Shown here: positions 1 to 10,084 of the stretch, piece by piece
Layout of the letters: each line of letters opens with the position of its first letter
Position numbering within the stretch: the stretch's first letter is position 1
Origin: an uncultured archaeon
GTDB lineage: Archaea; Asgardarchaeota; Thorarchaeia; Thorarchaeales; Thorarchaeaceae
Direction: 5' to 3'
Assembly: GCA_964590575.1 (NCBI GenBank)
Contig: CAZPWM010000079.1
Span: 1-14,526, forward strand
DNA: 14,526 nucleotides
Program-made: the position numbers and the translations under genes
The notes under the pieces: model-generated
Told to the model about the DNA's origin: nothing
What the model saw: only the letters and a program-made list of their open reading frames with translations
Database searches by the model: none

Positions 1-1
1 T

Positions 2-151
2 CACAATGGTAAGGACTTCACCCGCATCAAAATCATCCCGCAGATGATTGGACACCTAACCGGGGAGTTCAGTAATACGGGAAAACCTGTGAAGCATGGA
101 AATCCAGGAATCGGTGCTACAAAGTCTTCTGCGTACGTACCGCTGAAGTAG
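2..151 (+). CDS. rps19p: 30S ribosomal protein uS19 (S19P/S15e family), 3' part; 5' end lies outside the window
   Basis: Frame 2 reads [49 protein letters not shown], containing the uS19 signature HNGK...MIGHxxGEF and the archaeal/eukaryotic tail HGxPGIGATxSSxxVPLK. Not in the ORF track. Confidence 0.97.
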
Positions 152-175
152 AGAGATTCTATTGAAGAAAGTAGA

Positions 176-200
176 GATACTGAGATAGAGTTTCAGTATC
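176..200. terminator. Hairpin between convergent rps19 and protease genes, possible terminator
   Basis: GATACTGAGA (176-185) pairs with TTTCAGTATC (191-200): 10 bp with one G-U, 5-nt loop. Confidence 0.5.
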
Positions 201-205
201 ATTAT

Positions 206-3200
206 TCAACTTGATGTCTTGCGTTTTATTAGAACAAGCACTACGACGATGACAACAGCTGACCCAGCTGCAATAACTATGATTATGACAGAAGTCATTG
301 GAGTTTCTGGTGTGTCAATCGGTGGATTAGTGTCTGTACCAGTGCCTGTTGAAGTGTCCGTTGATGTAGTTGATGTCGTTTCAGTTGTACTACTGGATTC
401 TGCATTCACTGTGATAAAAACAGTATCAGTGGCTGAGTTTCCAGCAAGATCCCAGAAGATTACTGTGAAGGTGTATGTACCTTCTGAAAGCCCATCTACT
501 ACATATTCTAATCCATCACTCCAAGAGTCAGTTGATATCAATATTCCATCTCTATACAGCTCATAGTAATTCGGGTTCAAATCAGTGCAATCCCAAACAA
601 TCGAGTGTCCTGTAGTTTCCTGTTCGTATTCAATATCTAGCGGTGCTGAAAGATATGGACCTGTGTTATCAACTGTCAAGGCCATAGTAATTGTATGATT
701 ATTCCCAGCAGAATCTGTAGTTGTCATTTCAAACTCATAATATCCATCGGGAATGGAAGTTGAGTTAGAAAACATCCACTGTACAGTTGTAGAATTAATC
801 ATTGTGCCTGTAATTGGATTTTGGAAATATGAGGATATTGTACCAGACGTAAATGTAAGAGCAATGATATATGAACCACCCAAACTGTTAACATAACCGG
901 TGATTGTGATATTGTTTCCACTCTGATACAAATCTGTTGTTGAAGTTAGAAGTGGTGCAGTATTATCAACAAACGTAGTGTCTGAATCCATCACTAGAAT
1001 CGAGTTGAAAACAGCTCTTGCTGAAACATTGTGGACACCATCTGAGAACTGTGTCGTATCCCAATAGTAACTCCAGGAATCAATTCCAGATGCATATCCT
1101 TGGGATACTTCATCAATGAAAAGCTCAACCTGTGATACAGAATCTATAGTGCCAACCAGCTTTACATTGTCAACATATACCCCCTGATAGGTAACAGACA
1201 TGTCGCAGTGGAAATAGAACCCAATTCGAGTCGCTTCTGATGGAATTAACAGGGAGAGATGCTCCCAGCCAGTAGTGCTATCTAGAGAGTAAGGAGTGAT
1301 CCACGTGGAACCGCTATAATATCCCGGACTGAACCAATCGAATCCAGCCTCAACATCGACCCAATAATCAAAAGACATGGTGGCAGAATCAAAGTCACTC
1401 ACATCAATGTAGCAATATGCATAGGAGTCTGCATCATTCTCATATTCGGAGCCTATGTCCCAGATATCGATATCATCTACTGTCATACTGCCAGTATAAT
1501 CACCTTGGAATATGAAGGCAAAGTAGAGTGTTGAACTTATAGCATCCTCAGGCAACATGACTTCCTGTTCACCGATAAACGAGCATGTTTCACCTACTGG
1601 AGCCCACCATCTCTTAAGGTAAGTAAATGAGCTTCCATCAGTGGAATACAGAACACTGGCAAAGTTACTAGCTTGCGCGTTTTGAACTTCATAATCCATC
1701 CAGAATGTAAGGTAGAGTTCGGTCGCTGATGACGTGTCGATTGGACCCTTATACGCCCACTCTTTCACATCATATAATCCGCCTGTAGAACATGTAATTT
1801 CATATTCTAATGGAACACCAGCGTTTGTCCAAGGATGGCTATTTGTGCCTGCACTGTATAGACTCCATCCTGCAGGCCAGCCCAACCACAGTAACGGATT
1901 GAAGTGTTCAGTGTAGATGGCGGTTGAAGATGGAACTCCTCCGCACCAGAGTGATCTTCCTCCTGAGTAACTGTGATATGAATCTATACCCCATAGCTGA
2001 TCACCATTATCAGGATTGTCATCATATGTGAACCATGAACCTTCAAACGAACCCGGTTCGAATCCTACATCAAGAACAGTGACATCGGATTCACCCTGAG
2101 CTGACCCAGTAATCTCCACAGTCCCACCAACATACGTAGCTAATGAATCAATCTCGATAGATGGGATACTTAGAAATACGCTAATTTCACCCCTAGGTTG
2201 ATTGTCCCATATTGTATGAGGTGTTTGCAATGACGTTGCTTCGACGTCCCATTCAGTGGAGCGAACGCTAAAGCTCTCAAGTACACCTGAGTCTGGCCAT
2301 ACTGAGTCTCCAATCTCGATAATGAACTCGTTCTCTGTGTAGGTACTTAGATAGGGTGAAAAATCACTCAGATCAATCAAGATATGACTGCCTGGAAAAG
2401 GATAATTCTGGTATAATCCAGAGTCATCAGACATGATGAACGAATAGAATGTTTCTGACCATTCAGTCCATCCATTTTGATCGAGGCGAATATTGAATCC
2501 TGAGTTTAGAACATCTCCACGCTTATCATGAGAAATCCTGAAAGAAGCTATAAGATTCGGAGTGTATGGTTGACCAATAACATCGCAATAATAGAAACAG
2601 CGTTGAGATAAAGCAGAATCCTTGATAGCTTCATATGACATCCACCAAAAACCATTATCGCCCCAGCCTGAACCCCAAGAATTGACAAGCAAGAAGGCCC
2701 CCGGTCCATCTGCTGTTGTCTTTTGATCATCATAGCCTACAATACAGACTGCATGACCGCCACCTAATTCACCACTTGCATGGTCCGTAACGTAGATGTT
2801 ATTTACAGTATCAAAACTGTAGAAAGCAGTTCTTGTGAAAATGCCTGTGGTTGCAGTATTTCCAGCAGCAAGATATGATTTCAATACCTCTAAATCATCA
2901 TCATCATATAGATAATCCCAATCCGTGGTTGCGATTTTGTATCTCATTGCTTCATTGTATGCAGTTTCTGATGGCCATGTCGTATAGTCACTTGAGCTAT
3001 ATGGCATTATGGACATTGTAGCACAGCCAAAATCATTGATAAGAGAGGATGCATCCGAAAAATACGAGCCCGAATCATCACCGAAATTAATCTGATTGTA
3101 TACAAAAGCTGGACTAAATTGATGGCTTGGATTGGTTGTGTCCCAGAAGCCATTTGCAGCTGCTACTTGGTGTGTAAGAGAGTAATAAGCCCAAGCCCAT

Positions 3201-3619
3201 CCAACACATGACCCTTGAAACCCTTGGTTTCCTACGGGTGGAAGACCGACAAGGTTTGATGCACTTGGAGGATTTGCAGTGTCAGGAGAGCTGCCAGCTA
3301 CTAGGGAAACCGGACTCGTTTGAGCACCTCGTCTGGAATCTTCAAAATCAGTCATGTCCTCAAAGAGCAGTCCAGTTCTCCTATATTCTGAGGTGAACTC
3401 TGGCTCAGTGTAAGTATATGTTTCCTCAATATTTTCAGGGATAGTTAATGTTTCTTCAGTAACTACTTCTAAATTGGAAGACACTATATCCTCTCCGCTA
3501 CTAGACAGAGATGTTCCTTCCATCTTGAAAGGAGTCGATATTGTAGCACTAATTGAAATCATTGGAACCAACATCAAAAGCATAAATGAAACTACAATCA
3601 ATTTTTGTCTCAAGGTCAA
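206..3619 (-). CDS. Secreted, membrane-anchored papain-like (C1A) cysteine protease with jelly-roll (MAM/cleaved-adhesin-like) and Ig-like domains
   Basis: N-terminal signal peptide; catalytic motifs NQGFQGSCVGW (Gln, Cys), GGHAVCIVGYDD (His), NSWGSGWGDNG (Asn); Ig-like motifs WDTTQFSDGVH and DSAGN/DLAGN; Ser/Thr-rich stalk; C-terminal TM helix plus KRK. TTG start preceded by GGTGGGG. Confidence 0.93.
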   Translation of the reverse strand: MTLRQKLIVVSFMLLMLVPMISISATISTPFKMEGTSLSSSGEDIVSSNLEVVTEETLTIPENIEETYTYTEPEFTSEYRRTGLLFEDMTDFEDSRRGAQTSPVSLVAGSSPDTANPPSASNLVGLPPVGNQGFQGSCVGWAWAYYSLTHQVAAANGFWDTTNPSHQFSPAFVYNQINFGDDSGSYFSDASSLINDFGCATMSIMPYSSSDYTTWPSETAYNEAMRYKIATTDWDYLYDDDDLEVLKSYLAAGNTATTGIFTRTAFYSFDTVNNIYVTDHASGELGGGHAVCIVGYDDQKTTADGPGAFLLVNSWGSGWGDNGFWWMSYEAIKDSALSQRCFYYCDVIGQPYTPNLIASFRISHDKRGDVLNSGFNIRLDQNGWTEWSETFYSFIMSDDSGLYQNYPFPGSHILIDLSDFSPYLSTYTENEFIIEIGDSVWPDSGVLESFSVRSTEWDVEATSLQTPHTIWDNQPRGEISVFLSIPSIEIDSLATYVGGTVEITGSAQGESDVTVLDVGFEPGSFEGSWFTYDDNPDNGDQLWGIDSYHSYSGGRSLWCGGVPSSTAIYTEHFNPLLWLGWPAGWSLYSAGTNSHPWTNAGVPLEYEITCSTGGLYDVKEWAYKGPIDTSSATELYLTFWMDYEVQNAQASNFASVLYSTDGSSFTYLKRWWAPVGETCSFIGEQEVMLPEDAISSTLYFAFIFQGDYTGSMTVDDIDIWDIGSEYENDADSYAYCYIDVSDFDSATMSFDYWVDVEAGFDWFSPGYYSGSTWITPYSLDSTTGWEHLSLLIPSEATRIGFYFHCDMSVTYQGVYVDNVKLVGTIDSVSQVELFIDEVSQGYASGIDSWSYYWDTTQFSDGVHNVSARAVFNSILVMDSDTTFVDNTAPLLTSTTDLYQSGNNITITGYVNSLGGSYIIALTFTSGTISSYFQNPITGTMINSTTVQWMFSNSTSIPDGYYEFEMTTTDSAGNNHTITMALTVDNTGPYLSAPLDIEYEQETTGHSIVWDCTDLNPNYYELYRDGILISTDSWSDGLEYVVDGLSEGTYTFTVIFWDLAGNSATDTVFITVNAESSSTTETTSTTSTDTSTGTGTDTNPPIDTPETPMTSVIIIVIAAGSAVVIVVVLVLIKRKTSS

Positions 3620-3654
3620 ATCAGGTACCCCACCACGATTATGAATCTTAATTC

Positions 3655-3675
3655 ATCATAATATTATATATTCCT
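3655..3675 (-). promoter_or_regulatory. Candidate TATA-box promoter for the protease gene
   Basis: Minus strand GGAATATATAATATTATG about 40-50 nt upstream of the TTG start. Confidence 0.35.
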
Positions 3676-3717
3676 AACTAGTCTATAATCTCCGGTGTTA
3701 TCAAATGAAGTACGATA

Positions 3718-3804
3718 CAATTTTCGACAACCAACAAGCCCGTTAAGCATGGAAACCCTGGAATCGGAGCCACCAAGTCCTTAGCATATGTACCATTGAA
3801 GTAG
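3718..3804 (+). repeat. Second copy of the rps19 3' end (orphan gene fragment)
   Basis: Reads [28 protein letters not shown]. Last 60 nt match 92-151 at 48/60, with only one amino-acid change (S>L). Confidence 0.95.
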
Positions 3805-3848
3805 CAGGGAGAAAGATTACACAATTCCACAATGGTTGACCCATTTTG

Positions 3849-4916
3849 CTAGTTTCGTCTATAGCGTTTCCAAACAAGTACTGTGATCAGAGATGTTATG
3901 ATTAGTGGTATTGCCACGATACTGACAATAACAGCTATATTCGGAGGTTGAGGTTTCTGAGGTTGCGGTGACAGGTCAATGCTTCGTGCGTCACCTGGAA
4001 TCGTATAGGGACCAATTCCTGAATAATCATCGTACCAGTTAGAAATCCAAACGTTATCTACACCATTATCTCGTGCATTACCCCAGCTATTTTTTGAAAG
4101 CATATTGAGTGTTATCGTGTTGTTCCTGGATAGATCTAGAACATCTATTCCAAAGCCATTATTTGTGATTGTATTGTTTTTCACCAAGCAACCAATGCCT
4201 TCAAGGTATATTGCGTCTTCACGGTGTTCGGTAATTGTATTGTTGGCAATGACGCAAAACCATGCAGGACCAGACCCACCCCACGCACCAATCCCAACTC
4301 GACCAGTACATTGACCCTCTACGGAATTATGATTTGCTATCGAGTAGTTACTGTCTTGAAAATATAATCCAGCTCCGCTGTACTCGTGCAATATATTGAA
4401 TGAAACATTACAATGAATTGATTCTACAATAATGATACAGGCATCGTTTCCCTTGATGTCAGACTCATAGACTCCGCACTTTTCACAGTCATACATCCAC
4501 ACACTCCAATATCCTCCATTAATTTCACAATCAATCACATTGCAGTTCGACACATTCAACAAGAAGACTCCAAACGTGCCATGTAAAGAAGTATTATCAG
4601 GAAATGGAGTTAGAACGCACCCTTGAATGTTGACAAATGCAGATGTCCCGGTTATATTGATACATGTACGTGTGTCACTGATAGAGTATGCATCTATGAG
4701 AAAGGGATTATTTTGTGTGCCATTCCCAGGCAGTCCCAACTGTGTGAAATTGTCGATATGATTGATTACGATAGGTGAGTGAGGAGTGATTGCGCTTGTA
4801 ACAATGCCTTGATAGTTCAGAGGATTAGAATATGCAGTTTCTGTTATGATATTTGAAACCATCAAAGAATAACATACAGCAATCACTAATGAGTATAGAA
4901 ACACCCGCCCCTTCAT
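3849..4916 (-). CDS. Membrane-anchored right-handed parallel beta-helix (NosD/CASH-like) surface protein
   Basis: Signal peptide; GNGTQNNPFLI cap motif; repeated xxNNTIxxN/GIxL turns; NxWxxNWYDDY...YxIPG...D end motif; Pro/Gln linker; C-terminal TM plus KRYRR. Confidence 0.88.
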   Translation of the reverse strand: MKGRVFLYSLVIAVCYSLMVSNIITETAYSNPLNYQGIVTSAITPHSPIVINHIDNFTQLGLPGNGTQNNPFLIDAYSISDTRTCINITGTSAFVNIQGCVLTPFPDNTSLHGTFGVFLLNVSNCNVIDCEINGGYWSVWMYDCEKCGVYESDIKGNDACIIIVESIHCNVSFNILHEYSGAGLYFQDSNYSIANHNSVEGQCTGRVGIGAWGGSGPAWFCVIANNTITEHREDAIYLEGIGCLVKNNTITNNGFGIDVLDLSRNNTITLNMLSKNSWGNARDNGVDNVWISNWYDDYSGIGPYTIPGDARSIDLSPQPQKPQPPNIAVIVSIVAIPLIITSLITVLVWKRYRRN

Positions 4917-4944
4917 ATTTCATCAGCTCTACTATACACTCCTG

Positions 4945-4962
4945 TATCTAAATGTTTTCAAT
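4945..4962 (-). promoter_or_regulatory. Candidate BRE/TATA promoter for the beta-helix gene
   Basis: Minus strand GAAAACATTTAGATA (purine-rich stretch followed by TTTAGATA) about 30-45 nt upstream of the ATG. Confidence 0.35.
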
Positions 4963-5001
4963 CTTAGAAGGTCAATATACTCAAACCTAGTAATGGTATG
5001 T

Positions 5002-5088
5002 GAATTCAGCTCACCCATGGGTAAGATTAAACATGGAAACCCCGGAATCGGTGCTACAAAGTCCTCTGCGTATGTACCACTGAAATAG
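5002..5088 (+). repeat. Third copy of the rps19 3' end (orphan gene fragment)
   Basis: Reads [28 protein letters not shown]. Last 60 nt match 92-151 at 53/60, and all 7 differences are synonymous. Confidence 0.96.
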
Positions 5089-5093
5089 TTGGT

Positions 5094-5120
5094 GAAGGGG
5101 TCAAGAGACCTCTTCGTTTT
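5094..5120 (+). terminator. Hairpin plus T-tract directly after the third rps19 3' copy
   Basis: GAAGGGGTC-AAGA-GACCTCTTC (9 bp, one G-U) followed by GTTTT. Confidence 0.65.
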
Positions 5121-5201
5121 CATCCTGGTTCTGGATTAGATTTATCTCCCGTCAAGACATAGTAAGAATTGAGAGTGTGAATGAAAAGGGGTCTAATTTC
5201 C

Positions 5202-5837
5202 ATGGATAAATCTACGAGAAAAAGTGTATTCATACTCTATATCATTCTCTTTCTCATATCCACCACCACCGTATCGATGATTCAAATCGGCATGAATGTG
5301 TCTACTGAATACAATCTCAAAATTGATTATGAGAAACACAGGTGCACAATGAATAGCTTTCCTTGGGATCATAGCTATACCAGAGTTGTTGTCGATATGC
5401 CTGTCATGGTTAGCAACCGGGAAACAGTGTGCGATTTCCGCATTGGTAACTTTCCTTTTTGGGTTGACACATCTGGCTGGAGCAATGGTGCTCTTGTTAC
5501 TATTTCTGGATCTACTTATACCATCTCTTCAGAAGGTGTTTGTTGGAAAGCATATCGAGAAATTGATGATTCATTTTATGATACTGTTTACTACCATAAA
5601 GACACAGGGATATTCTACGAGAGTTATACTAATCGAGCTTACATGGATACTTTTAGTTTTAAAGGTTACACTGAAGATACAAAGATACTGAGTAGTAACA
5701 TCGACGGATTTGCGGCAAGAGTGACAGGAAGTAATGTAGTAGCGAACATTGTCCTGCTTAGTGCAATATTCACTGAGGTTTTGATAGTTCAAAGGCTATA
5801 CTCACGAAAAAAGAAGGCGAAGACTTCAATGTCATAA
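5202..5837 (+). CDS. Hypothetical membrane-anchored protein with N- and C-terminal hydrophobic helices
   Basis: Long ORF (track start 5181). ATG at 5202 follows an AGGGGT RBS-like motif. N-terminal TM/signal; C-terminal TM plus RKKK. Confidence 0.8.
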   Translation: MDKSTRKSVFILYIILFLISTTTVSMIQIGMNVSTEYNLKIDYEKHRCTMNSFPWDHSYTRVVVDMPVMVSNRETVCDFRIGNFPFWVDTSGWSNGALVTISGSTYTISSEGVCWKAYREIDDSFYDTVYYHKDTGIFYESYTNRAYMDTFSFKGYTEDTKILSSNIDGFAARVTGSNVVANIVLLSAIFTEVLIVQRLYSRKKKAKTSMS

Positions 5838-5859
5838 AAAACCCTTGAAATGAAAAGGT

Positions 5860-5941
5860 GGCAAACACACGGGAAATCGTGGTAGGAGGGGGAGTTTTCG
5901 TATGAGGGCATTGCTACGAAAAACAAGCCCGTGTGTTCGCC
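5860..5941 (-). other. Nested stem-loop in the convergent intergenic region (3' UTR structure, terminator or small RNA)
   Basis: 14-bp outer stem 5860-5873/5928-5941 (one G-U on the minus strand); perfect 8-bp inner stem 5895-5902/5915-5922. Confidence 0.6.
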
Positions 5942-5946
5942 TTTGC

Positions 5947-6336
5947 TTATTGCCAGTCTTCAAGGACAACATATCCATGAACATAATTCATCTCATTGAA
6001 CCGGTCATATACTTCTGCTGATGCCTTCTCAAGATCGTTTATCCTGAGGGAGTCACCAACTCCGTCTAGCAGCATTCTCCTGAATCTTGAATTCAGGTAT
6101 TCATCCAGCTCTCGAACTGCTCTGAATGTTACTTTCAGACTTACTTTATCCTCACTGTGTTGGTACACCTCTACTCTTGCGTTACTGTGTGATGGTCCTT
6201 TGCGTAGCTCTTCCACGATTGCTAGAGCATTCCTGATGTCCTCCCAGACTGTCAGGGTCTTGCTAAGAAAATTCAGGCCCTCAGTGTCGGGTGGTGTTGG
6301 CGTGGCGATATCCCTACACATTTTCCTATAATACAA
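5947..6336 (-). CDS. Hypothetical protein; start uncertain (TTG 6336 or ATG 6321)
   Basis: 129-aa ORF with globular-protein composition, co-oriented downstream of the LRR gene. No family recognised. Confidence 0.75.
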   Translation of the reverse strand: MYYRKMCRDIATPTPPDTEGLNFLSKTLTVWEDIRNALAIVEELRKGPSHSNARVEVYQHSEDKVSLKVTFRAVRELDEYLNSRFRRMLLDGVGDSLRINDLEKASAEVYDRFNEMNYVHGYVVLEDWQ

Positions 6337-6396: not shown

Positions 6397-7044
6397 TCAG
6401 TGCCATTTGATTGCATCGAGAAGGGGCTTTAGACCAATTGGCACCTTGGTTTGCGTCTTCAATTTTGAAGAAGCTGTGAGTGTCACATCCGAATCGATAC
6501 CAAACTTGACGAGATTTGGATTTAGAAAGAGTGGCGAAATATCTATAGTTTCCAGTTGATTCTTCTCTAGTGTCAGATTTCTAAGCTTCTTACACTTGCT
6601 CATGACAGAGAGATCTATACTCTTGAGTTTGTTTTCGTAGAGATGGAGCGTCTTTAGATCTTTGCAATGTACTAGTGGTGTGAGATTAATCGTCTTAATC
6701 CTATTGAATGACAAGCCCAGATGCATCAGACTTGTACACCCCTCTAAGGGTGTGAGGTCAATCTGTTCAATCTCATTACTACCTAGTGAGAGCTCTAGAA
6801 GCGAACCGCACTCTCGAAGTGGAGCGAGGTCAATACTCTGAATCTCGTTCCCGGATAGAGTCAGCGCTTCAATATTGGAGAATTGTCTGAGAATTGATAG
6901 ATCGGTGGTACCAATTCGTCTGTCACTGAGATCAATGCTTGTCGCATTAGGAGGGAATCGCTCAACCACTTTGCCACCTTTCTTAGTCTCGCTCCAGATG
7001 GTAATATCTTCCATTTCTGATTCATCCAAGGTCTTCACATACAT
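6397..7044 (-). CDS. Leucine-rich repeat protein, about six 24-aa repeats
   Basis: Repeating LxPLxxCxxLxxLxLxxNxIxxID unit with a 24-residue period; no signal peptide. Confidence 0.92.
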   Translation of the reverse strand: MYVKTLDESEMEDITIWSETKKGGKVVERFPPNATSIDLSDRRIGTTDLSILRQFSNIEALTLSGNEIQSIDLAPLRECGSLLELSLGSNEIEQIDLTPLEGCTSLMHLGLSFNRIKTINLTPLVHCKDLKTLHLYENKLKSIDLSVMSKCKKLRNLTLEKNQLETIDISPLFLNPNLVKFGIDSDVTLTASSKLKTQTKVPIGLKPLLDAIKWH

Positions 7045-8380: not shown

Positions 8381-10084
8381 TCAACGGATTTTCGTAAAAT
8401 AGACCACGAGAACGAGGGCTACAATTGCAACTCCCACAACAACACCAATGAGAAGCGGATCAAGTCCCGCCTCAGGGGTTCCAAGGGATACAACAAACTC
8501 AGTGAATCCAGTGTAGTTGTTACCGATGAACAAGCTGAAACCAGTGGCGGTCAGGTCCTCCGAGAGTTGAACAGTCGCCTGATCTGTAAGGGTTTGACCC
8601 CCGTTCACTGCAATTGTGGAGTCCAGAACATTTCTGGCGCTATCAAGAATCAATACTCCTCCTTTGCTACCAAGACGAGGACTCAGACATTCAGTCCGAG
8701 TAGACAATGTAAGATTATCACCTGTAGTCATTCCACCAGTTATACCAGTCACCATCACATCGAGTCTGGGAGTCATTTCAAGCAGATATTCAAATGCAGC
8801 AAGAAGGTCTTCCCAAAGCGGATTGATACCTGCCTCGACTGGATTGAAATAGCCATAGATCTCTTTCCACTCACGGATGATGTGTGTGTTATTATTCACA
8901 ATGATCGTATAAGCTTCGGCCAAGTCTGCAGAGGCATTGTGATATATCTCGAATGTAATCGGCACCGTGGTGCCTCGTTCATAGTACATCCACCCCTCCC
9001 ATCCGCCGCTTGTACCAGCTTCCTCTGACATTTGTGAGGGAATGTAACCAAGATACTCATTGAAGCCATCTGGCAAAATATCCGCGTAATCGGAAGCTAT
9101 TTGATAATAGAGGACGGGTTCGGTCCAGTCTTCATACTCATCAGTAGGGAAGTATGTTGTGTTGATTCCGGAATGGAGCGAATATGCCATAGCAAATCGG
9201 TGATTCAATGCGAAATCGCGAAATGCCTGAGTTTCATTTTCTGAGAATGGTTCGGTTCCACAATAGACCTGTGTGATTGGATTTTGTAGGTCCGGGTTGT
9301 TGAGACCCCAGAAGACGGGATAGTTTCGATTGAGGTCGACAAGGCCTACTTCATCCTCATTGAATAATGTATCATTATCATTGTCAATTCCTTCCCAATA
9401 CTCCCAATCGTAGTCAAAAATACCGGGAGTTTCTGTGGGATAGTCTTTCTCATAAACTAGGAAATTAGAGATCCATCCATCACCGTTGGTATCCTCAACG
9501 TCATCCTCAGAGGAGTAACCATCGTCATCATTATCGAATGGTTTAAGGTTCTTACGTAACCAGTGATTTCCTTGGTTGACAACCATTTCCAGAGCGTCGG
9601 GATTGAGGGTTGGGATAATGAAAATCTCCTGAGTGTCAACATACTCGGTAATGATATCATCGACACCGTAGTTGTTGAGCAGATGGAGAATGAATCTCAA
9701 AGCCATCTCTACAGTGATCTGCTCTCGTCCATGATGATGTGCAACAACCAATGTCTTTGCCTTCTGGACGGTGTTCATCTCGTTTGTTATACGGAGACAT
9801 GTCAGATTGCGTCCTTGATAACTCTGACCAATTATCTCCAGGTCTACGAGTTCTGGTACAAGACTATGAATATTCTCAATCTCCTCATCCACCTCAATAG
9901 GGTCATGGAACTGCTCATCATAAAGTAGCGAGATATTATCCCACGTTCGGGTCACGGAAGGTGTGACTACCTTCTCTATAATAGGTACAGTTCCTGTTTG
10001 CTGAGAAGCCATCACCTGAACAGGTGCGATGGTCAATGCCAGAATCAGAGTGAGTAGTAAAATCCTTGATCTGGTTTGTGTGAT
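8381..10084 (-). CDS. Membrane-anchored M14 family zinc carboxypeptidase; probable start is ATC at 10084 rather than TTG at 10036
   Basis: M14 motifs HHGRE (HxxE), NPD, LRKN, VDLNRNY, PFSENETQA, YSLHS, TFEI; C-terminal TM. A 16-codon upstream extension completes a signal peptide and follows GAGGTGA. Confidence 0.92.
   Translation of the reverse strand: MTQTRSRILLLTLILALTIAPVQVMASQQTGTVPIIEKVVTPSVTRTWDNISLLYDEQFHDPIEVDEEIENIHSLVPELVDLEIIGQSYQGRNLTCLRITNEMNTVQKAKTLVVAHHHGREQITVEMALRFILHLLNNYGVDDIITEYVDTQEIFIIPTLNPDALEMVVNQGNHWLRKNLKPFDNDDDGYSSEDDVEDTNGDGWISNFLVYEKDYPTETPGIFDYDWEYWEGIDNDNDTLFNEDEVGLVDLNRNYPVFWGLNNPDLQNPITQVYCGTEPFSENETQAFRDFALNHRFAMAYSLHSGINTTYFPTDEYEDWTEPVLYYQIASDYADILPDGFNEYLGYIPSQMSEEAGTSGGWEGWMYYERGTTVPITFEIYHNASADLAEAYTIIVNNNTHIIREWKEIYGYFNPVEAGINPLWEDLLAAFEYLLEMTPRLDVMVTGITGGMTTGDNLTLSTRTECLSPRLGSKGGVLILDSARNVLDSTIAVNGGQTLTDQATVQLSEDLTATGFSLFIGNNYTGFTEFVVSLGTPEAGLDPLLIGVVVGVAIVALVLVVYFTKIR

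Follow-up and report, generated by a model that had tools for sequence, protein, structure and literature searches.

Arrays of cassettes separated by orphan rps19 gene ends downstream of a ribosomal protein gene in Thorarchaeota

Results

Organization of the rps19 locus

The window analysed here is the whole of contig C79 (14,526 nucleotides; CAZPWM010000079.1, assembly GCA_964590575.1) from a 194-contig archaeal bin, genome G000, assigned to the Thorarchaeaceae. It starts inside rps19, the gene for ribosomal protein uS19, and carries three copies of the 3' end of that gene, namely the real gene end (copy 1) and two orphan copies, with a cassette in each of the two intervals. We use the term tail for the last 20 codons and the stop codon of rps19 (63 nucleotides). 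All three tails are in frame, run to a TAG stop and match the C-terminal end of the archaeal uS19 model TIGR01025, and only copy 1 extends upstream into the body of the uS19 gene. The same segments form a direct repeat family (D1; 83-151, 3736-3804 and 5020-5088) with 78% identity to the reference copy. Direct repeats of the rps19 3' end thus flank the inserts and the target gene stays intact, as is the case for integrative elements. Copy 2 is preceded by an in-frame TGA 12 codons ahead of its tail and has no start codon. Copy 3 is the final tail of the array.

Table 1. Features of the window, with positions given from its first base.
Feature	Position	Strand	Description
rps19 (uS19), 3' part	2-151	+	TIGR01025 positions 87-135, E 3.5e-19 (match 2-148); ends TAG
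Copy 1, real gene end	62-151	+	Tail 89-151; outside the coordinates of the first-pass annotation
F codon	68-70	+	Start of fragment homology
Hexapeptide of copy 1	71-88	+	SNTGKP
Hairpin 3' of rps19 stop	176-200	+	Stable, terminator-like; the 60 nucleotides past the stop fold at -16.9 kcal/mol, z -3.9
Cassette 1, sole gene	206-3619	-	1137-residue secreted protein; N-terminal signal or transmembrane segment, C-terminal transmembrane segments (open reading frame call)
Orphan tail, copy 2	3718-3804	+	QFSTTNKP + 20 codons; TIGR01025 105-135, E 7e-7 (match 3709-3801); nhmmer E 3.5e-18
Cassette 2 (family F)	3849-4916	-	355-residue parallel beta-helix (NosD-like repeat) protein, C-terminal transmembrane segment
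Orphan tail, copy 3	5002-5088	+	EFSSPMGK + 20 codons; TIGR01025 106-135, E 3e-6 (match 4996-5085); nhmmer E 8.4e-20
Hairpin with 9-bp stem	5094-5115	+	GAAGGGGTC aaga GACCTCTTC; z -2.7
Anchor gene past the array	5181-5837	+	218-residue protein, transmembrane segments at both ends (open reading frame call)
Antisense open reading frame	4932-5123	-	63 residues
Leucine-rich-repeat protein gene	6397-7044	-	Contains repeat family D2 (6672-6849)
Second large secreted protein	8381-10036	-	C-terminal membrane anchor

The hairpin that follows copy 3 marks a conserved distal edge of the array, because the same motif is found 3' of the last tail in the arrays of G015, G020, G022, G009 and G018, six arrays with that of the window. 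Homologues of the anchor gene, with 45-55% amino-acid identity, are placed after the last tail in G018, G009 and G020. The antisense open reading frame begins in the hairpin and passes back through the tail of copy 3; it is probably fortuitous. The 5' part of rps19 was searched for across the same assembly and not found, and contigs of other sequencing runs extend upstream of base 1. Since rpl22 and rps3 lie on another contig of the genome, behind unrelated genes, and a TPR protein gene is found upstream of rps19 in relatives, rps19 is a stand-alone gene in this lineage.

The protein of cassette 1 gave a weak match to a PHROG peptidase (E 7.9e-7) and no family above cut-off in the NCBIfam scan; read by eye, it has motifs like those of papain-like peptidases. 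No counterpart of this cassette was found among the other arrays retrieved, and it is 99.9% identical in a contig of public run X2. Cassette 2 is common to G018 (87% nucleotide identity) and G022 (68%).

Divergence of the tails and coding constraint

Over the last 19 codons and the stop, copies 1 and 3 differ at 7 positions, all of them synonymous (P = 8e-5 for seven out of seven by chance). Copies 1 and 2 differ at 12, comprising ten synonymous codon changes and a TCT to TTA change (Ser to Leu), and copies 2 and 3 at 10. The first-pass annotation had reported these counts, the sole S to L change, the retained frame and TAG stop, and the preceding hexapeptides NTGKPV, TTNKPV and SPMGKI, all of which we recovered. 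It had also proposed a comparison of synonymous and nonsynonymous change between the copies. By the Nei-Gojobori method, the proportions of synonymous (pS) and nonsynonymous (pN) differences over the 20 codons before the stop span 0.47-0.74 and 0.034-0.056, with pS 0.74 and pN 0.034 for copies 1 and 2, 0.47 and 0.034 for copies 1 and 3, and 0.55 and 0.056 for copies 2 and 3. The chance of such a synonymous excess under random substitution is 1.6e-5, 1.9e-3 and 1.4e-3, respectively. When the hexapeptide is included (87 nucleotides), pN rises to 0.14-0.24; the constraint is therefore limited to the last 20 codons and the hexapeptide lies outside it.

The same pattern was observed across the genus, from which 61 full-length tails were collected (24 gene ends and 37 orphans). 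The major allele is below 0.8 at 19 of the 21 wobble positions, with switches between TCN and AGY serine codons among the changes, and conservation reaches 96% at first and second codon positions. At a threshold of 95% conservation, no run exceeds 2 nucleotides, so that the tails share no identical nucleotide core. Values of pS and pN are 0.78 and 0.048 between genes, 0.68 and 0.038 between a gene and the orphans of the same genome, and 0.70 and 0.080 between orphans. Fourteen orphan tails carry no amino-acid change, 15 carry one and 8 carry two to five, compared with none in 18 gene ends and one in the other 6; internal stops or truncations occur in a few orphans. Orphans thus exceed genes by a mere 0.72 amino-acid changes per tail (about 0.016 per site). 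As this is tiny next to a pS of 0.68, most of the divergence arose under coding constraint, and the orphans have been orphans only for a short time. These comparisons support the proposal of the first-pass annotation that the orphan ends were once working gene ends and diverged under protein-level selection.

Of 35 full-length fragments, 16 offer no start codon (ATG, GTG or TTG) downstream of the last in-frame stop ahead of the tail, and in 32 such a stop occurs at most 29 codons upstream. Translation of the orphans, which had been named as another possible source of selection, can thus be set aside as a general one. The 60 nucleotides past the tails fold with a mean z of -1.75, 29 of 64 being below -2, versus -0.21 and 3 of 38 for control stretches (mononucleotide shuffles); each tail therefore comes with a terminator-like hairpin, like a complete gene end. 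The tails of the three copies in the window have no significant single-strand fold on either strand (six folds, z -1.4 to +1.7).

Tails from the same genome are slightly closer to each other than tails from different genomes (12.7 versus 15.0 differences of 63, permutation p 0.0005). The gene-fragment pS within a genome is nevertheless nearly the between-genome value of 0.745, which argues against homogenisation. Long exact runs are common to otherwise unlike tails, both within and between genomes, a sign that the tails are mosaic. It had been suggested that each orphan tail acts as a barcode of the donor from which its cassette came, and this idea did not hold. None of the 37 fragments lies within 3 nucleotides of any of the 24 sampled gene tails, and the gene tails themselves differ by 6-24 of 63 nucleotides (mean 14.7), which amounts to saturation. 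A maximum-likelihood tree of the 61 tails placed no donor, left 38 of 58 branches without resolution and did not group the three G000 copies as a clade; its starred branches join a gene to a fragment in just two cases, G012_4793 with the G020 gene, and the G007 gene with its own fragment.

Distribution of the arrays

We performed a scan with the uS19 model for orphan C-terminal matches in 28 species genomes of the genus. This analysis revealed such tails in 17 genomes, downstream of rps19 and on the same strand, with up to 7 extra tails on one contig in G015. At the level of the order (87 genomes, 17 genera), orphan tails were found in 12 further genomes from 6 further genera of the family (g16, g17, g22, g25, g26 and g27), including G076, where the gene and 8 tails lie on one 25-kb contig. 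None was found in the other 10 genera of the order, which is weak evidence because the bins are incomplete, and none in 16 genomes searched outside the family. In metagenomes, a degenerate tail pattern retrieved 58 contigs with 95 tails, 15 of these contigs holding 2 to 10 tails at spacings down to about 500 nucleotides. The tails of one contig are all on the same strand, except for one contig with two distant tails on opposite strands. The same pattern gave 0 matches among IMG/VR viral contigs.

Assemblies often break in or just past rps19, as observed at base 1 of the window and in G004:C241, G009:C123, G018:C266, G022:C42, G020:C11 and G012:C99. Such frequent breaks fit strain-level variation or repeats, and arrays are therefore under-counted in bins.

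Elsewhere in G000, contig C25 carries a 25-nucleotide relic of an rps19 tail (5568-5592; ...SAYVPLK*; nhmmer E 0.0056 genome-wide). About 1.5 kb away (3898-4051) lies a relic of 120-150 nucleotides that is 77-82% identical to the start of cassette E, which encodes an MFS protein and is present in the arrays of G008, G012, G015 and G024. Together they may represent a further stretch of array that has decayed or been translocated. In G078, a one-contig genome of g25, two full-length rps19 genes (C1:1263512-1263898 and 1318605-1318991) are located 55 kb apart on opposite strands. They differ in their 5' part, one being near G089 (pS 0.07) and the other near G088 (0.16).

Horizontal movement of cassettes

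The synonymous divergence of uS3 (genus mean pS 0.73) was used as the species baseline. Cassette F, the beta-helix cassette between copies 2 and 3, has a pS of 0.25 between G000 and G018, for which uS3 gives 0.65 and the anchor gene past the arrays 0.68. For cassette A in G004 and G014, pS is 0.16 versus 0.73 for uS3 and 0.58 for rps19. Cassette B is 93% identical at the nucleotide level between G002 and G009, with a uS3 pS of 0.71. A given cassette family can adjoin the gene in one species yet occupy the second or third position elsewhere. Cassettes move horizontally, since they are far more alike between species than uS3 or rps19, and on this point the first-pass annotation was right.

Contigs from four public runs were compared with bases 1-6000 of the window. 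A contig of run X2 covering 1-2318 has 23 base differences, 20 of which fall within 56-115 together with all 4 indels. It reads HVLGEFSATNRAVKHG in place of 16 residues of the window, so that SATNRA replaces SNTGKP ahead of the same cassette, and from about base 116 it is identical through the cassette bar 2 other differences. Another X2 contig, spanning 2300-5089, has 4 differences and diverges directly past the copy 3 stop. Contigs of X1 and X6 are exact across the copy 2 and copy 3 junctions, with 0 differences over 3556-5596 in X1. Uncovered stretches in X6 and X8, and loose ends at 55, 92, 107, 150/152, 5014, 5029 and 5087, may come from other species and are hints only. The same two-cassette block thus appears between another gene head and another distal flank, the changeovers falling at tails; we take this as support rather than proof.

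Mosaic rps19 genes, linkage and the hexapeptide

The 5' part of rps19 (first 102-109 codons) was compared with the last 20 codons in close species pairs. Among seven pairs of the genus with a 5' pS below 0.30, six have a tail pS at least about twice the 5' value. Clear examples are G008-G015 (5' pS 0.21, tail pS 0.76, P 6e-6), G015-G024 (0.20 and 0.60, P 1.5e-3), G001-G013 (0.29 and 0.76, P 2e-4) and G007-G017 (0.26 and 0.65, P 2.3e-3). The concordant control G008-G024 gives 0.21 and 0.23 (P 0.44), and G097-G098, from a genus without arrays, 0.18 and 0.13 (P 0.81). The 5' parts of close pairs diverge as uS3 does, while the last 20 codons are near saturation. Genus-wide, pS correlates with that of uS3 with r 0.68 for the 5' part and r 0.23 for the tail. 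The intact gene is thus a mosaic, as had been predicted from the window, but the breakpoint in these close pairs does not lie near the GEF codons as anticipated. It falls after the hexapeptide, at or inside VKHG..., because the hexapeptide is unchanged in close pairs.

Pairs that share only the downstream cassette (n = 7) are 0.88 identical over the last 21 nucleotides of the tail (background 0.78), while identity in the middle (0.72) and in the 5' third (0.78) does not rise above background. Pairs that share only the upstream cassette (n = 7) are 0.73 identical over the hexapeptide stretch (background 0.39), with the tail at background. Tails are thus reshuffled: only the last ~21 nucleotides are tied to the downstream cassette, and the hexapeptide region is tied to the upstream one and not to a donor gene. 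Along cassette A in G004 and G014, identity is 0.91-1.00 between the first base past the stop and the end of the hexapeptide remnant; in the two flanking tails it falls to about 0.82. Linkage and identity profile together indicate that the moving unit comprises the last ~21 nucleotides of a tail, the hairpin, the cargo and the F-hexapeptide remnant. The middle ~42 nucleotides of the tail is the exchange zone and is linked to neither flank.

The six residues between GEF and VKHG differ in nearly every species of the genus, and several genera contain both of the broad types xxT[NT][KR]x and S[SN]PMxx. On the uS3 tree, the SPM and TGKP types each need at least 2 changes. TGKP is found in G000, in G004 and G014, and in G009, which are split by starred branches; in G004, G014 and G009 it occurs with cassette A. 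The notion that insertions can rewrite the hexapeptide has some support from these distributions and from the SATNRA contig, which suggest that some events also swap the hexapeptide and so alter the uS19 protein. The use of a single-gene tree, convergence or contig chimeras may account for the pattern instead.

Cargo and the search for a recombinase

Cassettes usually hold 1-4 genes in either orientation and range from 0.6 to 16 kb, the largest being a 16.3-kb insert in G094 with many open reading frames of no known family. The cargo includes MFS and ABC transporters and an arsenosugar operon, as well as surface and repeat proteins (beta-helix, leucine-rich-repeat, TPR, ankyrin, beta-propeller, peptidase). 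Defence-type genes encode PDC-S02/Mrr-like (E 3.5e-140), DrmC-like PLD, LmuA-like MBL and PtuA/PtuB proteins, a nitrilase-TPR protein, a mad8/HerA-like ATPase and a MAD6-like kinase.

No integrase or recombinase family was found in array open reading frames searched against NCBIfam (104 at E 1e-5, 48 at 1e-10, 8 at 0.01 and 64 at 1e-12) or among 53 array proteins searched against PHROGs (E 1e-6). In the window, no integrase was found among 14 open reading frames searched against NCBIfam or 7 searched against PHROGs. Two TnpB genes (IS200/IS605-type) adjoin arrays and are not inside cassettes: local positions 4803-6026 of L041 (G024:C105) and 53-628 of metagenome locus L304. Two proteins next to tails were considered as recombinase candidates and rejected. 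The acidic protein of 306-314 residues beside rps19 in G001, G012, G015 and G024 has no match in NCBIfam, PHROGs or PADLOC and no recombinase motifs by eye. For the 375-residue protein adjoining the G094 fragment, neither NCBIfam (E 0.01) nor PDB sequences (E 0.1) gave a match.

A three-gene module recurs by rps19 (L053/L051 of G001, L038 of G015, L054 of G012, L034 of G024 and L178 of G094) and is the most widespread gene-proximal cassette. It encodes an acidic protein of ~217-314 residues, a protein of ~960-1240 residues and an ATPase of ~1020-1090 residues with weak mad8/HerA and TraD/CedD P-loop matches.

Further along the window, the leucine-rich-repeat gene carries a 72-nucleotide periodic DNA repeat (family D2) that mirrors the protein repeat units, and such genes recur beside the arrays of G012, G020, G022 and G085. 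The second large secreted protein resembles a zinc carboxypeptidase by eye and has no NCBIfam family above cut-off.

Discussion

A probable cassette-accretion island at the rps19 3' end

From the array architecture and its distribution, the horizontal transfer of cassettes, the mosaic intact genes and the linkage pattern, we think it likely that the rps19 3' end is the entry point of a cassette-accretion island common in one Thorarchaeota family, and that recombination inside the tail re-completes the gene. The direction of events and the enzymology below are our reading of these patterns. Foreign segments (0.6-16 kb, with 1-4 genes and sometimes more) lie between rps19 and the semi-conserved anchor. 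Each is bordered on the left by an rps19 tail end with its terminator-like hairpin, and on the right by an F-hexapeptide remnant that runs into the next tail. Crossover would occur within the conserved last 20 codons. A tail-cassette-tail segment, either circular (single crossover) or linear (two crossovers), might cross with the resident tail and thereby add a tail copy, as in a Campbell-type insertion. Two tails could instead act as replacement arms, and the stretch between them would be exchanged. The gene would regain a chimeric but synonymous tail and the former tail would be left downstream as an orphan; because the crossover falls in coding sequence, the gene would be re-completed at every event.

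A damaged tail copy could not pass to the gene-proximal position, and arrays may turn over faster than neutral decay, which together would explain why nearly all differences among orphans fall at wobble positions. Tails would also be kept readable by selection acting on transfer, since a cassette with a damaged left tail could not take the place next to the gene. Distal tails tend to be the decayed ones (G009_10309, G020_3506) and distal cassettes are more widely shared, as with F in G000, G018 and G022, and on these grounds we infer that the usual point of entry of new cassettes is beside the gene.

Given that no integrase was detected, that the genus lacks a nucleotide core, that neither flank is linked to the exchange zone and that the crossovers look spread, general homologous recombination, with the tails as portable homology, is favoured at somewhat better than even chances over a dedicated recombinase acting in trans, which we regard as a less probable route. 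A related and more tentative idea is an integron-like capture platform with a coding-level attachment site, in which DNA flanked by the degenerately coded C-terminal 20 residues of uS19 would be swapped in or out beside rps19. Such a platform might work without a dedicated integrase or with a recombinase of a new family, and would occasionally replace the hexapeptide.

Several observations weigh against an accretion island driven by homologous recombination in the tail. Recombination over 63 nucleotides at ~77% identity should have a low efficiency. Fragment homology begins abruptly on its left side, at the TTY codon of GEF in at least 13 cassette families, and this edge resembles a defined site more than random homologous exchange, although a few g25 fragments reach past it to E or G-E. 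In g25 the last ~20 nucleotides (AGCAGCGCTTACGTGCCTCT) are nearly invariant in genes and fragments, like a classical att core. Many array open reading frames have no family match at all, and divergent archaeal integrases may escape NCBIfam and PHROGs. The fragments of G018 all bear their own genome's hexapeptide, AITTKQ, which the linkage rule fails to predict, and the linkage test itself consists of 7 + 7 non-independent pairs. Genus g29 has discordant tails (P 6e-6; 0.17 versus 0.73 in G100-G105) with no orphans detected, although hidden arrays are possible there because its rps19 genes sit 440-800 nucleotides from contig ends. The species baseline is a single gene, and the contigs from other runs were built from 31-mers, with possible chimeras at shared words.

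Alternative explanations

Some of these observations would be natural under classical site-specific integration, in which the tails are attL/attR-type sites, elements at the rps19 3' end bring a replacement gene end and accrete in tandem, and most are integrase-less remnants or cis-mobilisable with the integrase elsewhere. Besides the sharp left boundary and the nearly invariant g25 stretch, the 16.3-kb G094 insert fits this scheme. Archaeal elements that re-use one site in tandem or integrate into 3'-distal regions of protein genes have been described (PMC6563490, PMC8371274), and element e14 leaves a C-terminal icdC pseudogene (PMC13626634). Against this scheme, no integrase was seen among ~220 array open reading frames from genomes and metagenomes. 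The genus of the window lacks a conserved nucleotide core, viral contigs lack the tail pattern, and a single fixed crossover would not leave the middle 42 nucleotides unlinked to both flanks; we therefore consider this explanation possible but doubtful. More specific systems were rejected. No reverse transcriptase was found among the window's open reading frames and the differences involve all four bases at wobble positions rather than being A-specific, unlike a diversity-generating retroelement. Repeats of 63-87 nucleotides with only ~78% identity do not resemble the target-site duplications of casposons or transposons, no inverted-repeat pair was reported to bracket either cassette, and the only such genes seen were the two for TnpB, outside the cassettes. 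The six tail folds gave no attC-like signal in what was a fold test only, with no attC covariance model. Upstream of the array lie rps19 and the TPR protein gene and no integrase was found, in place of the intI and attI of an integron.

Local tandem duplication of the gene end in each genome, kept alike by gene conversion with no horizontal transfer, would account for the slight closeness of same-genome tails, the uniform hexapeptide of the G018 fragments and the exact 30-nucleotide 3' run common to the G015 gene and one of its own fragments. It is very improbable, since within-genome divergence nearly equals that between genomes, cassettes are far more alike between species than uS3 or rps19, cassette positions vary by species, and the G012 fragments carry hexapeptide types of other clades. 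We give equally little credence to the idea that orphan tails function in their own right, whether translated into micro-peptides or acting at the level of RNA or as terminators, with that function as the source of selection. Copy 3 does have an in-frame ATG at 4993 that opens a 31-residue reading frame, and stable hairpins do follow the tails. However, many fragments lack a start codon or have a nearby upstream stop, some tails contain stops or truncations, the tails do not fold significantly, and conservation at the amino-acid level with free wobble is unlike an RNA or DNA signal. The many contigs that break at or near rps19 (the window, G004, G009, G018, G022 and G020) could point to strains or species collapsed or mis-joined in the bins. 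Such an assembly artefact can be practically dismissed, as more than 25 independent assemblies have arrays on single contigs, three other runs yield contigs at least 99% identical to the window over tail junctions, and the tails of an array are all on the same strand yet differ from one another.

Significance and comparison with known systems

The arrays point to a main route of accessory-gene gain and exchange in one Asgard archaeal family. The docking site is an essential ribosomal protein gene, not a tRNA gene, and the repeats are held by amino-acid coding rather than by nucleotide identity. Orphan uS19 tails are a simple marker of this flexible island in new Thorarchaeota genomes, and the arrays account for metagenome assemblies that break at rps19 in these organisms. 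If no dedicated recombinase is involved, a short conserved coding end would suffice as portable homology between species whose synonymous sites are saturated. If the capture-platform idea is correct, the island would also be a source of standing variation in the ribosome, in a protein segment close to the decoding centre.

In a literature search of limited coverage, no paper was found on rps19 or ribosomal protein S19 as an integration site or on Thorarchaeota with integrated elements. Staphylococcal cassette chromosomes (SCC/SCCmec) at the 3' end of rlmH (orfX) resemble the rps19 arrays in forming tandem cassettes, some without a recombinase, bounded by the last bases of a housekeeping gene. 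They differ in their repeats of ~15-20 identical bases, their Ccr serine recombinases and their bacterial host.

The closest system in logic is that of e14 and phage 21 in the icd 3' end of Escherichia coli, at least as far as the cited part of the account goes. These elements bring a substitute gene end, the displaced icdC fragment remains as a pseudogene, the end differences of e14 are mainly synonymous or conservative, and its excision gives a chimeric working gene (PMC13626634). As in the rps19 arrays, a mobile segment lies in the 3' end of an essential-pathway gene and supplies a substitute end. However, e14 is one prophage that encodes an integrase and has a defined core, whereas rps19 arrays hold up to 8-10 small cassettes with no integrase detected and, in the genus of the window, no core; the host here is an Asgard archaeon and the target a ribosomal protein gene rather than icd.

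In architecture, the closest systems in the accounts consulted are tycheposon islands, tandem archaeal 3'-end integrations and integron arrays. In the Prochlorococcus islands, repeated integration pushes older elements inward, partial copies of the target gene are left and the cargo is adaptive or defensive (bioRxiv 10.1101/2020.12.28.424599). Tycheposons use tyrosine recombinases and tRNA targets, whereas the rps19 arrays have a protein-coding repeat kept at the amino-acid level only and no recombinase found. Integrated elements of archaea, including Thaumarchaeota, where 14 of 68 do so, also use the 3' ends of protein genes, and re-use of a site gives rise to arrays. The elements carry integrases or casposases and short identical att or target-site repeats, and rps19 is not among the targets listed in the parts cited (PMC6563490, PMC8371274). 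Integrons, including archaeal ones, likewise share and reorder cassettes of one to a few genes that lack their own recombinase, each with a recombination site after it, according to the portion cited (bioRxiv 10.1101/2022.02.06.479319). Unlike integrons, the rps19 arrays have no adjoining intI and no attC-like hairpin, their genes lie in both orientations and their repeat is the end of an essential gene. The rps19 array is thus a new variant of targeted accretion island, set apart by its target gene, the lack of a detectable recombinase, its small and numerous cassettes and a repeat conserved only at the level of codons.

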